The position numbers and the translations under genes are program-made. This document shows positions 44,082 through 64,000 of a stretch of DNA of 64,000 bases, piece after piece (position 1 is the first letter of the stretch; each line of letters starts with the position of its first letter). The notes under the pieces were generated by a model. It was not told where the DNA came from and made no database searches. It saw nothing but the letters and a program-made list of their open reading frames with translations. The DNA comes from Leptonemataceae bacterium (GTDB lineage: Bacteria > Spirochaetota > Leptospiria > Leptospirales > Leptonemataceae): positions 4,960,001 to 5,024,000 of the forward strand of contig OZ245742.1 of NCBI GenBank assembly GCA_965227295.1, in the 5' to 3' direction.

Positions 44082-44483
44082 TCATAAATTAACAATGCCT
44101 AAAAATTTCCTGAAGACACTGGCCACTTCAGGATGGACAGGAGAAAGTACGGATATTTCTGCCGGCTCCGTGCATATATGAAGCACGGAAGGAGTAGCAT
44201 CTAGCGCAAGAGGCATCTCGTCTTTCTCTATTTCTATTAGCTCCGAAACGAGATCAGTCGTTGTGTGTTTTGAAATTTCCATCGTGGCACGAGGTTTTAC
44301 ATCATTACGAGAGAACAAATATGCCATTGCTCTTTCTTCCTCTCCGACGACAACTAAGTCAAATTCCGGATGCGCCCCTGCGATCAAGAGTTCAAACTCA
44401 GGACTCGGCGAAGTATGCTGGTACTTAGCTAATGACGCCCGCAATACCGTCTTTCTAACTTTATCGAAAACATCATCTCCCAT
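44082..44483 (-). CDS. Putative immunity protein (orphan module)
   Basis: 133 aa, AT-rich, GAGGGG RBS; follows a short toxin-like remnant. Confidence 0.5.
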   Translation of the reverse strand: MGDDVFDKVRKTVLRASLAKYQHTSPSPEFELLIAGAHPEFDLVVVGEEERAMAYLFSRNDVKPRATMEISKHTTTDLVSELIEIEKDEMPLALDATPSVLHICTEPAEISVLSPVHPEVASVFRKFLGIVNL

Positions 44484-44493
44484 TATTCCCCTC

Positions 44494-62400: not shown

Positions 62401-64000
62401 TTGCGGGCGTTTTCCTCGTCGGTATCGTGGGCGAGGCCGTCCCGGGAAACCGGCGCGCTGTCGTTGTACAATTGCGAAGCGGTGAGCGAATTCAGTGCCG
62501 GCACCGCCGCTTTCATCTCGGCGATCAAACCGGTGATCTTGTTTTCCTGATCCTCATGATAACGATCCGTCATGGCGCTCTGCACAAGCCCCGCGTTCAC
62601 CTGCGCCGCGAAGTCCGCATGCTGTTGCAACACGATCGCCTCGGCCTGCGCCGCAGCGAAGGCCACCTGGCCGAAGACCATCTGCCCCGCCGGATTAAAA
62701 AACGCCGAGAGCAAACGTCGCTCCACCGGCGAGCCGCCCGTGCGAATCGCTAACTGCTCCGCATCGGACATTAAGCCGTCCGCGGCAAACCAGTCGCGCA
62801 GATCTTCGGCAAACGCGCGCTCATCGGCAAGGCCGCTCACGACCTCCGCGCGGTCCGCGTCATCGAGCAACGCCAGGCCCTGGGCGTTCTGCGACAGATA
62901 CTGACCCACGGCCTGCAGAGCCGCAAGCTCCCGCCGCTGCGCCCCGTCCGTGACGTCATACGCATTCAAAAGCGCGTTCACGGCTTCCGTAACTTCGATC
63001 AGCAAGATGTTAACACTCCGCCCGCTCGCGAGATAGCTCTCAGTCAGCTCCAGCGCGCGCACATTGATCTCCGCCGCTTCCAGGCGCTGCCCGCGCTCCA
63101 GCTCGCCCTGCATCGAATCGAGCAACATCTCATCGGCGTTTTCTTCTAATAAAAAGGCCAGTTGCGAACGTTGACTCGCGAGCGAGCCGCGCAGGGTCTC
63201 GTGCAGCTCGTTCACGAACGATCCCGCCGCCAGATTCGCCTGGCTCCGCCCGCCGAGCGCCGAGCGATACGCCTGCACCCGCTCCGCGTGCTGGCCGAAC
63301 GCCTCCGCGAGCGCCGCGAAGCCGTCGTCGCCGGTTTCGATGGCGCCGAACGCCGACGTCCCCGCCGCATCAAACGCTAACTTCTCCGCGCTGATCGTTT
63401 GCAGGGCCGCGGACCGGGCGTCGCCGGTAATCGAAGCATCAATCAGAATCGGCGCGCTGCCCAGCGTACGCCCGAGCAAAATTTCGGCCTGCTGTTGCAT
63501 GCTCTGTGCGATCCGAAACTCCTGCTCGAAACGCGCCGCCGCCAGACGAAACTCATCCGCCGCCGAAAGCAACCGCGCCGTCCGCGCCTGGTAGGCCGCC
63601 GACGCCTCGGCACCCGCGTTCGCCGCCGCATACGATTCATAATCACTCAGTTCCGCGGCAAACGTCGCATAGGCCGCGTCGTAGTCACCGCCGCGCGACG
63701 CTAACACCGCCACAGAATTAGTTAAGGCCGTCCCGAGCGTCCGCAAATCATCCAGACCGCCGCCCCAATCCACGCCGGCGATCCCGTCCAGCGCGTCCAC
63801 AATGCGGCCGACCTCGCCCGCAAAGTTCGAAAGCGCATCGCGCTCCCCGCCGCCGAATGTCACCGCACCGTGCGCCGTTCCGAACTCAGCGAGCCCGCCG
63901 TTCAGCGCGTTGGTCTCGGTGGCCACCGGCGCTTCGGCGTCACTCACCGCCGCCGCAATATCAGCAATGCGATCGCGAAACTGATCGGCCGCCGCGTTCC
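53499..64000 (-). CDS. Giant polymorphic toxin (5'-partial, >3480 aa; possibly related to the Leptospira TIGR04388-type large proteins)
   Basis: Frame is open to the window edge; Ala/acidic helical and coiled-coil body, hydrophobic helices, Gly-rich region shared with the cassettes, AT-rich tip with IHFNM...TAWEY...KTRFY. Confidence 0.85.
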   Translation of the reverse strand, partial: NAAADQFRDRIADIAAAVSDAEAPVATETNALNGGLAEFGTAHGAVTFGGGERDALSNFAGEVGRIVDALDGIAGVDWGGGLDDLRTLGTALTNSVAVLASRGGDYDAAYATFAAELSDYESYAAANAGAEASAAYQARTARLLSAADEFRLAAARFEQEFRIAQSMQQQAEILLGRTLGSAPILIDASITGDARSAALQTISAEKLAFDAAGTSAFGAIETGDDGFAALAEAFGQHAERVQAYRSALGGRSQANLAAGSFVNELHETLRGSLASQRSQLAFLLEENADEMLLDSMQGELERGQRLEAAEINVRALELTESYLASGRSVNILLIEVTEAVNALLNAYDVTDGAQRRELAALQAVGQYLSQNAQGLALLDDADRAEVVSGLADERAFAEDLRDWFAADGLMSDAEQLAIRTGGSPVERRLLSAFFNPAGQMVFGQVAFAAAQAEAIVLQQHADFAAQVNAGLVQSAMTDRYHEDQENKITGLIAEMKAAVPALNSLTASQLYNDSAPVSRDGLAHDTDEENARKAVLASLLSGAGASTEDRLTALTDMAQLVPIFGAEAAVSVFAELQAMQDAHSGAAEELARASRALVNQGAAFDAEVDALLGAYGKKSAYVSQRDALQAVLDLADVEDASSPAVVGVPQADVDTHVASLGGGDDPAVDFPADWTPVDDADGDAPGDAAWDPTYTHEDGFVTPFAGLDFASVTNARNDLDAVLADWDANEATLSAAVVNFRAAKATFDAAVVANPAGTPGYDAALTDFAVAVNDMYFAYRAHNEFFVALEFLARDAADQARSVTAAAKSLAGLDPNQQLLTAAELAATPTEFQDEVAASPAAYLVLAGTEDAHVLALGAADYAAFQSANETQLATAVRASDEGSFAGAAAGVGFARERYTEAVADMSAATAEADALIAALPDRVDVRLDPGSTDEVSAATLVSVVDQLRIFFAEKQAAGEEVNPAILDALEAAGGALDELEALRDFRDRGASVSVEDAKAERTAAEEARDDTAGVGALIVELQQFISQSEASGAGLHEQGDRIKELLAKYEAAQADFAAVYAFSAELDDAMSLLRDHAWAQHKRELTQAFLGRRGDLSVDAFLSNIEQGRFVNVPGANGESISVDSKFLGTALDATQLSELEALLREYAARARVDDAGIVADIDALLAQEDAAVRAAVEPDALTYSYNNFNALNTAGVGDFTALPAALKDYGLVSAYESYTQRLGLGLNDADDRATGLSRFLDTLSQTNRAAAEPVLQEYLTNYDARNPSYYLPADLKDRFARERYFAKRYSGELTPGDAVALGDWLAQEKFDAGVSGAVESAVRTAYVLDNFYGEDANEYLTTIDADLSVLTGSGVSAEERQAFVLGLSGMLSAAGDPFIEPDAMLAGTVIYDNFLFEDNTQALKDALDAELANYAGVQRTADAAATRAGLFFDYKSGAKSIRSYKSYLNIAPTGLSEPDEATQIAGMLAELEHQAEHRLGAFVSLVEQYSSFAYNADPAYANNLNIRDTIGEIKADFALQDGQYARAGDGSYVFEAGLNNTQVRLDEFVNANTAAFTAADRDAYAQVQKQQGAMQQLQETIITAGQEAVQVSWITGTFGSDTNAYLGALDHARQVFANREADFDAAENDYKTAESALRTKREEYRAQQDTVLANYNALRVAEVELDRLSSLYDQATIEEYSQQTDANGDTETLGDPVADAQVRFDAAQGAYEAQLAKIAGLEEKLARQVTKTELAAAAEVQLNRDETEKWAMHAMRFSRAEERLEDKINQLHADIEDIKSNMEQNFGAHFDISMTRFDGYRQEVAGYLDYGSSDYVRSENLHRDRFRLLNGLVTGQIGFWDLAYSQAGGYVQRPIYETYTDAEGEQRRRVIGYTDNAAWSTGIATKSGGEYDLFGFVHGYNQGRAGQNETLRELAQDQFLWSWEGDLWAGARTALDTSNFDAGVWNNYTTGVLTMAAIFLYAGAAGLPFLFQLYGKDQAFMQQAGLAYGRFATLTDSANELKQKYAELHRLTDIDTVDQLRDVLDDDEFGLTAEDLALIDGSGGLGNLVWKGGKEDLGFNELVGSNGLTIAQQKAIHDEYGFFVRDGTFSAGAITATPTETDKFGRRTTLMISGDEFTDAMAAMAQTQYEIERQEYFRAAETMTKDRVQADDKVILDEREEFYAGLLTQAQSVGVEYEMYRVLAEDYHGEGGIVEQVAEIEFAQRVEAQQNEWDLREEQFAKKRQEWEENIARLTSVGEERWSDMTTEVATAWNKWRQDFDAQARDAEDLYLERIGDAVEDQQEWQDEFTNLATQGADEQTLRELYDEINAMVAGLKTGLPDDVSIDLNANEILNQVLANKPDTLSEDMILRGQYANTQLFVNELREYSFDNSIQDRYDELTERYEEQTQRLVRLQMLDSLYGLIDMYDETIAKANLALHKELDLSFSRSEWMRMGPVYAKFIKTPAAVITGGSAIPVYAPTYEDYQYIKPDLTIEAIVNDANGREWNLTETEKILADDGPSGAELEAMVRLVRNKLQKDFEEHYDPDEEVDYEASTGLIALDLESAFAASASALQNPLTCSESESMDECARSILTSGYTVGLVEGGTFGWNHFETFYRALATKKFFDQMEAEGQAARNSVGARMGRDLGNNITAPQRAIARNASWALDTFDRNIDALASTLQLGSFGTFGLTLGTNDLKSGLARYSGAMRDSVNAYDKFHRGIRVGMQKGWTRNDTYIDAAITVALTALSFIPVLTPFTLTALAAYKSLRGSYQGGTRGALVSAGGSAASVLAGMATGGTVSINAGYSFHGGYNGGISLGQGGASVGVNYSEQGGYGMSAGANGVSLRYGEQGSWGVSAGGLSYDYSRSGGHTYGVDVAHFEGESGSVTGTLTYNNKTGTGVSASAQFGTTGKYGTFGGNSSVGWSRFGGVNSNFGLSYTAPNVSLDFGLSGDEPVAPTNSDEYLLSNIFAGAASRVDEWTKGIAGAGDAVAGFAGSALGFGRGGFWEKAGNFVSGGGFQSNAAIAAASPAAVAARKAAEDFTREYNRDRYGREDAIKLIRAMFSEADLVHGDGGGHSEHGQDIVKDAKATVDEFLAAQGKGELSASDVATLATLMGVDEDVAFALITDEAGLREKVNYLAKADADQKAAAAAKLPVYGPPTKEQSRLDYQAYRGQMNAFAEVLTGKSLVELENAPENMWEEFLQKTKGANWRPEGALPIVLSQSDKDRLMESYYREKLHEQRKAEILQEHGPEALAQFEAGVSLRGWQDYIHGGIDGLLPVGTSSTSQMMLEEDLKRAHLTGKTDFFREGYGYESEYGNSYLLGSLTPAAIGTAGGLLSRLRSGALAGARSGITSAADDVARISDDLLPPKNEIALGLSWHKESGHYYAGQPVLLEKFSEKVGAPYWKQWPGAEYAAGGDPSKLTKYLLKNMEEADVIHFNMDQFSKSGYKRFVKRWGENPGPLNWKIMNARQVTAWEYQTILSNSKLLEKTRFYAKGGRQMSLSELFYPPKGTQ

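Follow-up and report, generated by a model that had tools for sequence, protein, structure and literature searches.

A giant, very probably polymorphic toxin of a Leptonemataceae bacterium, a TolC–RND gene cluster linked to its family, and a hairpin repeat at the starts of its orphan cassettes

The family TIGR04388 (Lepto_longest) is described as containing inteins and variable C-termini, and a HINT domain before the tip (the C-terminal domain) is a feature of this family. Other large proteins with exchangeable tips are the Rhs/YD toxins, which are recognised by their YD/RHS repeats and core, and CdiA (type Vb), which is recognised by a TPS domain and haemagglutinin repeats. Here, a giant gene is compared with these systems. 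It lies in a stretch of 64,000 nucleotides (the window, to which all positions refer; sites past its end are given as window-equivalent) at positions 4,960,001 to 5,024,000 of contig OZ245742.1 of a Leptonemataceae bacterium (Spirochaetota; assembly GCA_965227295.1), the genome of which is a single contig of 5.94 Mb, 93.55% complete. The product would be a toxin of 4,322 residues with exchangeable C-terminal tips, likely antibacterial, to which the next gene after the tip likely confers immunity. Judging from the sequence, the giant and its neighbours almost certainly constitute a polymorphic toxin system, and no published description of this type of trunk was found.

The visible part of the gene occupies 53499..64000 (all features are on the minus strand unless marked +), where the open frame reaches the end of the window after 3,499 amino acids (aa); the start is at window-equivalent 66467, beyond the window edge. 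At the N-terminus there is a signal-like segment (basic, hydrophobic, VFA-Q), which may be cleaved as a signal peptide, and the trunk, which contains 2 Cys, is acidic and rich in Ala. For more than 80% of the chain there is no family match and a helical structure is predicted; for the N-terminal 3,000 residues, the composition points to a helical nature. A Pfam scan of the protein gave nothing beyond one match at E 0.025, an NCBIfam scan gave no match, and an atlas search with the N-terminal 547 aa gave no usable match. Because these scans contain no such match, the giant is taken to have no Rhs/YD or haemagglutinin repeat: YD/RHS repeats and core were found by neither Pfam nor NCBIfam, the TPS domain and haemagglutinin repeats of CdiA were not found by Pfam, and the modelled part of the protein is mainly helical. 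A search for a ShlB/CdiB partner gave 0 matches in the genome, though the same search was also silent in control genomes. The closest named relative is a hypothetical protein of Leptospira weilii of 4,503 aa, which, with the presence of TIGR04388 in genomes of the order, points to a place in the Leptospirales. A 170-aa gene considered as a conserved upstream partner was set aside, being common to the three giant loci of this genome only and showing no alignment across lineages.

There are three giant trunks in the genome (in the window, at locus A and at locus B), and they carry unrelated C-terminal domains. The window and locus A trunks are 98% identical over 3,838 aa and 18–33% identical thereafter; the end of the trunk is marked by a conserved GNxxSGxG motif followed by a variable linker (53958..55016), identity to the locus A copy falling at aa ~3838. 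The locus B trunk is 62% identical to that of the window overall (99% over aa 1–200, 40–75% beyond aa 400), and ends in Ntox30 (E 1e-24), after which there is a HEAT-repeat gene. An SseB-domain gene follows the locus A giant, and an orphan tip at locus A matches PDB 9ro8, an ADP-ribosyl cyclase toxin, at E 1e-14.

Downstream of the resident gene, the window holds an array of orphan cassettes. An IS3/IS481-type transposase gene (rve_3; 51639..52769, +) is inserted between the resident gene and the first cassette, and next to it is a branched, Flavo-1-like hairpin repeat of 125 bp (51514..51638), the homology of the cassette beginning 64–113 bp past the 3′ end of the repeat. This cassette (48903..51450) has a HEELH zincin tip (Tox-MPTase5, E 0.0022, below the Pfam cut-off), the stop codon of which is overlapped by a gene for a 97-aa Cys-containing (zinc-ribbon-like) protein, likely conferring immunity (48616..48909). 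Then come the C-terminal remnant of a DUF1016_N-SNase gene with a leader of ~280 bp, common to other toxin arrays (48037..48553), and a second 125-bp hairpin repeat (47915..48036), 5 bp past the 3′ end of which the homology of the second cassette begins (45082..47910). The papain-fold tip of the second cassette (NC...H...D) matches Tox-PL1/Gln_amidase at E 2e-4, just under the cut-off, and is followed by an Imm35 immunity gene (44762..45085; E 2e-7, over the cut-off), the reported partner of Tox-PL1 [for this pairing and the tip motifs, see part of PMC3482391]. A 133-aa low-GC gene without family match, possibly an orphan immunity gene (44082..44483), and an IS3-type transposase fragment (43464..43958, +) close the array. 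Across this fragment the array adjoins a Tc-like toxin gene pair (26834-34495 and 34567-43269, +; SpvB/TcdB-type, 2,553 aa, and TcA-type, 2,900 aa). Within the leader that is common to several toxin arrays there is a perfect palindrome of 26 bp (48130-48105, −).

An earlier note, made from the letters of the stretch, had described a protein of more than 3480 aa without Rhs/YD or haemagglutinin repeats, the hydrophobic and Gly-rich pre-toxin region of which recurs in two downstream 5′-truncated cassettes with differing tips and downstream genes; each of these points is borne out, the first two also for the whole protein. The pre-toxin region consists of hydrophobic helices (55656..55841, aa 3543–3604) and a Gly-rich segment (55227..55652, aa 3606–3747, 25% Gly). 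As had been noted, the two cassettes are near-identical to each other, sharing 792 bp at 97.6% (46994-47785 vs 50659-51450), but diverged from the resident gene (about 70% in DNA over 440 bp, 61% in protein over aa 3540–3750), and all three differ in their tips and downstream genes. The suggestion that the resident allele was replaced is supported, in that its trunk is 98% identical to the locus A copy, which has another tip, and the window orphans are 61% identical to it in the pre-toxin region. Short-read contigs (two runs of one study, possibly from the source sample) span each tip and the gene that follows it without a single differing letter; they break at repeats, and therefore provide no check of which trunk copy joins which tip.

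Tips from toxin families thus occur on both giants and orphans (Ntox30, ADP-ribosyl cyclase, Tox-PL1, Tox-MPTase5 and a tip shared with Rhs toxins), immunity genes adjoin them (Imm35 after Tox-PL1, HEAT at locus B, SseB at locus A; the rest by position), and the genome has 14 orphan tip–immunity cassettes, counting the giant and TIGR04388 types together. The scores of both window orphan tips, which are under the Pfam cut-offs, weigh against the assignment. It could be argued that a protein with so long a helical chain lacking family matches is an adhesin or structural filament with variable enzymatic ends rather than a toxin; however, these tips fall into named toxin families that Rhs toxins also carry, and the Tox-PL1 tip has Imm35 after it, so this is scarcely credible. 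A second question is that of the targets, which might be eukaryotic grazers or fungi rather than bacteria: PDB 9ro8 is titled antibacterial and anti-eukaryotic, and a Leptospiraceae-specific tip, PT8, the trunk of which may be of another type, harmed fungi in lysate assays [part of 10.1101/2021.10.19.465003]. In contrast, a small low-GC gene after every tip (one of them Imm35), together with the keeping of old immunity genes, points to conflict between kin bacteria, and relatives of the giant end in M23 and M74-like cell-wall peptidases. Eukaryotic targets are therefore very improbable.

The resident tip (53502..53942) belongs to a family with the pattern ALGL..ADxIHFN(L/M)D..T(N/A)WE, which also forms the C-terminus of Rhs/HINT toxins. 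Among cluster representatives it has 21 matches, 2 of them spurious (ankyrin proteins); in a Myxococcus SpvB-RHS toxin, one match stands directly behind PT-HINT, and another relative closes an Rhs frame in Rhabdobacter. A word-index search with the tip gave 0 matches, a PDB sequence search found no match, and when a profile of the tip was run on 155 other genomes from this order, no further copy came up. The structure model of the tip (pLDDT 85.7) resembles TIR, SEFIR, nucleoside deoxyribosyltransferase (NDT) and ADP-ribosyl cyclase folds (Z 5–6.3), and a conserved Thr-x-Trp-Glu helix suggests, on these weak matches, a nucleotide glycohydrolase. The chances that the tip is an NAD or nucleotide glycohydrolase, as modelled, are about even; all fold matches are below Z 8, which weighs against it, and Foldseek with the tip model gave nothing under E 0.001. 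Six bp after the tip there is a 100-aa gene (53190..53492; GC 0.47), by position only the likely cognate immunity gene. No homologue of it was found, and it does not align with the genes after two other members of the tip family, a point against that role. A second low-GC gene follows (52802..53230; 124–142 aa, no family match), likely an orphan immunity gene, which is the third small gene and an addition to those noted earlier. For the unnamed small genes as a group, immunity is very likely the function.

The last part of the trunk may be the part that delivers the tip. A Trp-rich coiled-coil segment (57018..57410, aa ~3020–3150), which has a second copy near the N-terminus and occurs also in TIGR04388 proteins, precedes the pre-toxin region. 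The structure model covers aa 3000–3830 (mean pLDDT 65) and has long helices, a confident alpha/beta domain, the hydrophobic helices at low confidence, and a 12-strand meander in the Gly-rich segment. The 13 best structural matches all map to this meander and all are membrane barrels (Z 8.1–10.8), including KdgM (Z 10.8, root-mean-square deviation 3.2, 133 aligned), LpxR (Z 10.0) and autotransporters (Z 9.6–9.8). The Gly-rich segment is thus predicted to be a 12-strand membrane barrel. Against this prediction are the pLDDT of the barrel region, which is only about 60–75, and the result of Foldseek with the model of aa 3000–3830, which gave nothing under E 0.001. Insertion of the barrel into the membrane of the target rather than that of the producer has about an even chance.

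In type Ve systems there is a signal peptide, a 12-strand barrel in the outer membrane of the producer and a C-terminal passenger. The giant has a similar order (signal peptide, long N-terminal part, 12-strand barrel, C-terminal passenger) and autotransporter barrels are among its top matches, so the barrel could sit in the outer membrane of the producer itself, in the manner of an inverse autotransporter; alternatively, the giant could exit by type II secretion, as a secretin is present in the genome. Under either alternative, the protein would still be a polymorphic toxin, and the TolC–RND cluster described below would serve in assembly or in unrelated transport. With a barrel in the membrane of the producer, some 3,500 helical residues would stay behind in the periplasm, and both alternatives leave unexplained the gene linkage to which the text now turns; they are considered unlikely.

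In this genome, genes for TolC (OEP), a HlyD-type adaptor and two AcrB-family proteins, together with TPR and Yip1 genes, form a cluster that stands among five TIGR04388 genes, 58–88 kb from the window giant. TolC, adaptor and two AcrB-like RND genes adjoin the giant at 13 of the 27 loci checked, namely 6/16 in Leptospirales (G010, G012, G013, G039, G047, G058) and 7/11 in other spirochaete families, often accompanied by Ig-like (Big_5) genes. In three treponeme-sized genomes, TolC, adaptor, RND and RND form one same-strand run in which the giant gene is last. The TolC of this cluster is present in 44 of 60 relatives, every one of which also carries trunks of giant or TIGR04388 type (at a distance of ≤35 kb in 31, on different contigs in 11, farther apart in 2). 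Among the 16 relatives that lack it, no trunk is seen in 12, and the other 4 show nothing longer than frames of 436 aa. A quick tree built from 37 RND proteins places those linked to toxins apart from the 13 others of the genome. The TM4 aspartate is at its usual column in 18 of 20 linked RND proteins aligned; both copies of this genome deviate.

A possible route follows from these observations. Sec likely moves the giant to the periplasm, from which a dedicated channel of TolC, adaptor and paired RND proteins likely exports it as a long helical stalk; the hydrophobic hairpin and the small β-barrel near the end would then deliver the tip into the neighbouring cell. Type I secretion, which has no Sec signal and uses an ABC pump, does not fit, as the signal-like N-terminus is conserved and the linked transporters are ACR_tran RND proteins. 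Several points weigh against the route. The cluster is absent from the vicinity of 14/27 giant loci, and within this genome is beside none of the three giant genes; the TolC threshold (E≤1e-12) was chosen once the scores were known; related genomes are not independent, and therefore no p-value is relied on for the co-occurrence; the type II secretin provides another possible exit; and the precedent for export of periplasmic proteins by a tripartite pump is an ABC system with a cargo of at most ~10 kDa, not a 460-kDa chain moved via RND proteins [part of PMC8277102]. The 14 loci without the cluster would suit an own-membrane barrel or type II exit, whereas the co-occurrence in 44/44 genomes and the same-strand runs would not. 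Export via the RND/TolC set is given about an even chance.

The giants form a family across Spirochaetota. Homologues are found in 28/60 relatives with one trunk segment and in 29/60 with another, and a profile of the pre-toxin region matches 75/401 genomes of the phylum, with full-length frames of 2,900–5,100 aa. By eye, a hydrophobic segment lies within the first 280 residues in all 20 giants inspected, flanked in most of them by a basic stretch on its N-terminal side and an A-Q-type site on the other. The ends of relatives include PT-HINT with a tip, PD-(D/E)XK, α/β-hydrolase, C39 and M23. In two close treponeme-like genomes (G364 and G328), the main proteins are alike (88%) as far as aa ~2640 and no farther, and a downstream frame of G364 is 97% identical to the resident C-terminus of G328; by sequence comparison, this is a natural swap of tips. 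In L031 (G041) and L040/L041 (G011) the giant gene is split over two frames, through a broken gene or an assembly error.

The hidden Markov model (HMM) of TIGR04388 gives no match at E≤1 for the whole giant or its parts, and its 45-bit cut-off is not reached, whereas other genes of the genome pass and the family is found at E 0 in genomes of the same order; membership of the window giant in TIGR04388 was therefore rejected. HINT before the tip is absent in the window giant and present in 2/6 close giants. The giants fail the model but share the start, the Trp-rich coil and the pre-toxin region with TIGR04388, and are therefore best called a long sister family. The earlier note had proposed HMM searches, recovery of the 5′ end and structure prediction: the tips match toxin profiles and some modules are common to TIGR04388 proteins, the gene start was located, and models gave helices and a 12-strand barrel (aa 3000–3830) with a TIR/NDT/cyclase-like tip. 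Invariant C-termini in homologues had been named as evidence to the contrary, and the C-termini vary. The view that the giant is a polymorphic toxin of spirochaete origin, neither Rhs nor CdiA, is thus supported by its tips, its homologues and the absence of repeat matches. About 13 TIGR04388 genes with orphan arrays of their own (G000:C1 5063716-5126838, 2279389-2296600, 512557-530148) make up an unusually large arsenal in this genome.

The remaining finding concerns the starts of the orphans. The 125-bp branched hairpin repeat occurs at 197 sites in the genome, most copies being outside toxin loci, and precedes each window cassette. Its folding is supported by dinucleotide-shuffle z of −2.4 to −5.0 (top strand) and compensatory stems, and its CG-N-AG triloop has a strand bias of 515:43; GNA triloops are stable in DNA. 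Of the 14 orphans in the genome, of giant and TIGR04388 types, 11 start ≤27 bp from the 3′ end of the repeat, one starts 64–113 bp past it, one after a copy split by a group II intron and one after only the first five bases of the repeat; the count omits 2/15 rows (one with the 5′ part of a gene, the other with a full-length protein in which the match is confined to a tip). By chance, such a start would be expected at a rate of about 2e-4 per position. The weight of the junctions is lessened, as several of them stem from a single event by copying. In relatives, a similar motif lies, by eye, before 14/17 orphans (not clearly in G010, G001 and G458), rows for G040, G042 and G060 being left out, as the full gene start is outside the locus.

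At loci of the Leptospira family, the junction motif is Rfam Flavo-1 (RF01705): in 7 scanned loci, all five Flavo-1 matches over the gathering score end 43–73 bp before the orphan start. The repeat of this genome gave 0 matches to RF01705 (≥42 bits needed; 150/384 candidates scored). Flavo-1 is catalogued among RNA motifs, and its function is not known [parts of PMC2864571 and PMC9723704], and the latter, in the part cited, reports matches in either orientation, with no clue to function. Other identities of the repeat were considered and set aside. A REPtron (RAYT with REP) would have a Y1 transposase flanked by the repeat, and this was not found (PF01797: 0 matches in the genome, the control being positive in 6/14). 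By comparison with the attC consensus of integrons, the GTT and AAC ends are reversed. A preference for TCGA targets, which seemed present at the junctions here, was not reproduced in relatives. A DUF1016_N-SNase gene or remnant often precedes the repeat, a link that is real though not exclusive to toxins (7/20 stretches have a TIGR04388-type match, some others being short contigs). A DUF1016_N-OB-SNase fusion recurs inside toxin arrays across Leptospirales (L005:7002-8009 and relatives), where OB-SNase takes the place of PD-(D/E)XK, the usual partner of DUF1016_N. A group II intron with reverse transcriptase lies in the last bases of the repeat at two sites (G000:C1 2367839-2369690, 2020569), and may therefore target the hairpin. 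Heptamer repeats lie between hairpin and cassette in Leptospira arrays (L026, L027, L029, L032).

The association of hairpin and junction is thus observed; its cause may be displacement. The array likely grows when incoming DNA, carrying a new tip, an immunity gene, the SNase leader and the hairpin repeat, pairs with the conserved 5′ trunk, and an illegitimate joint would then form with the old gene immediately past the 3′ side of the hairpin, whereby the 3′ part of the old gene would be shifted downstream and become an orphan. The 99% identity of the window and locus B trunks over aa 1–200, against 40–75% past aa 400, fits such a 5′ anchor of homology. The array could instead arise by tandem duplication of the entire unit and subsequent deletion reaching from the hairpin into the next copy of the trunk, or by a site-specific enzyme acting at it, e.g. 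DUF1016_N-SNase. Identical junctions recur within arrays, the DUF1016_N-SNase gene occurs in giant and TIGR04388 arrays of several genomes, and the compensatory stems with the triloop bias suggest recognition as single-stranded DNA. Duplication in place is at odds with the window and locus A orphans being only 61% and about 30% identical to their resident trunk; in addition, no Y1 transposase was found, the junctions share no target motif and most repeat copies are outside toxin loci. Duplication or an enzyme is thus a somewhat unlikely origin, and displacement is preferred.

The genome has two further features: CRISPR arrays with a cas operon ~10 kb downstream of giant locus A (G000:C1 780500-789500), and six proteins of 1,500–2,000 aa (G000:C1 438472, 1715191, 2621380, 3679149, 5466653, 5804619) that share a start of the type DISR...QQGR...DADWNEQ, presumably typical of contractile-injection baseplate loci.

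Taken as a whole, the explanation in which a toxin is exported by RND/TolC, delivered by a barrel and diversified by displacement is the best available and reasonably probable. A wider scheme can be put forward only tentatively, as falling somewhat short of probable: a spirochaete toxin secretion system (heteromeric RND pair, adaptor, TolC, and TPR, Yip1 and Ig-like accessory proteins) threading Sec-exported helical giants and TIGR04388 proteins from the periplasm to the outside, these proteins as contact weapons of long reach that plant a small β-barrel in the outer membrane of the target, and Flavo-1 as a single-stranded DNA hairpin fixing the joints of cassettes. In Leptospira and many relatives, genes of this kind rank with the largest, yet no description of the toxin system or its export route was found: searches of the published literature (in full text; most subscription journals not covered) gave no paper on TIGR04388, no RND-linked or contact-type polymorphic toxin system of spirochaetes, and no Flavo-1 at toxin junctions. 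The parts a specialist would not expect are the RND/TolC route and the hairpin-defined junction. If the RND link holds, pumps of a class otherwise associated with small molecules and metals would carry out the export of a 460-kDa protein. This might be a new secretion system and, if so, a hitherto undescribed means of toxin delivery to rival bacteria. The junctions give Flavo-1 a testable role, and the hairpin offers a defined site for a step that elsewhere is put down to unexplained illegitimate recombination.

The giants resemble TIGR04388 proteins in their signal-like N-terminus and first ~90 mature residues (hhalign 97%, E 3e-11), the Trp-rich coil (98.7%), the hydrophobic and Gly-rich pre-toxin region (blastp E 4e-16 to 1e-3), variable tips with optional PT-HINT, the RND/TolC neighbourhood and the repeat at orphan starts; they differ in having roughly double the length and ~2,400 more helical residues, and the window giant in lacking HINT. 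The repeat shares with Flavo-1, by eye, its outer arms and the terminal hairpin-CGCCC end, although the copies of this genome do not score against the model. As in CdiA/CdiB and Rhs systems [part of PMC3482391], there is a giant constant trunk with an exchangeable tip, adjacent immunity, orphan arrays and shared tip families; unlike in these, the trunk is α-helical without haemagglutinin or YD repeats, and the family is linked to an RND/TolC set (ShlB-family matches 0 in the genome, control genomes silent too). In MacAB-TolC [part of PMC8277102], the Sec-exported enterotoxin STII is likewise picked up in the periplasm and passed through TolC, but the pump is of the ABC type and its cargo does not exceed about 10 kDa, whereas the giant system pairs RND proteins and its cargo would be about 460 kDa. 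Finally, the displacement of Vibrio type VI secretion effectors [part of PMC5361080] has the same 5′ homology anchor, with the new module coming in and old modules left downstream, and no fixed site of joining is reported in the part cited; here, the illegitimate joint would differ in that a structured repeat fixes its donor end.

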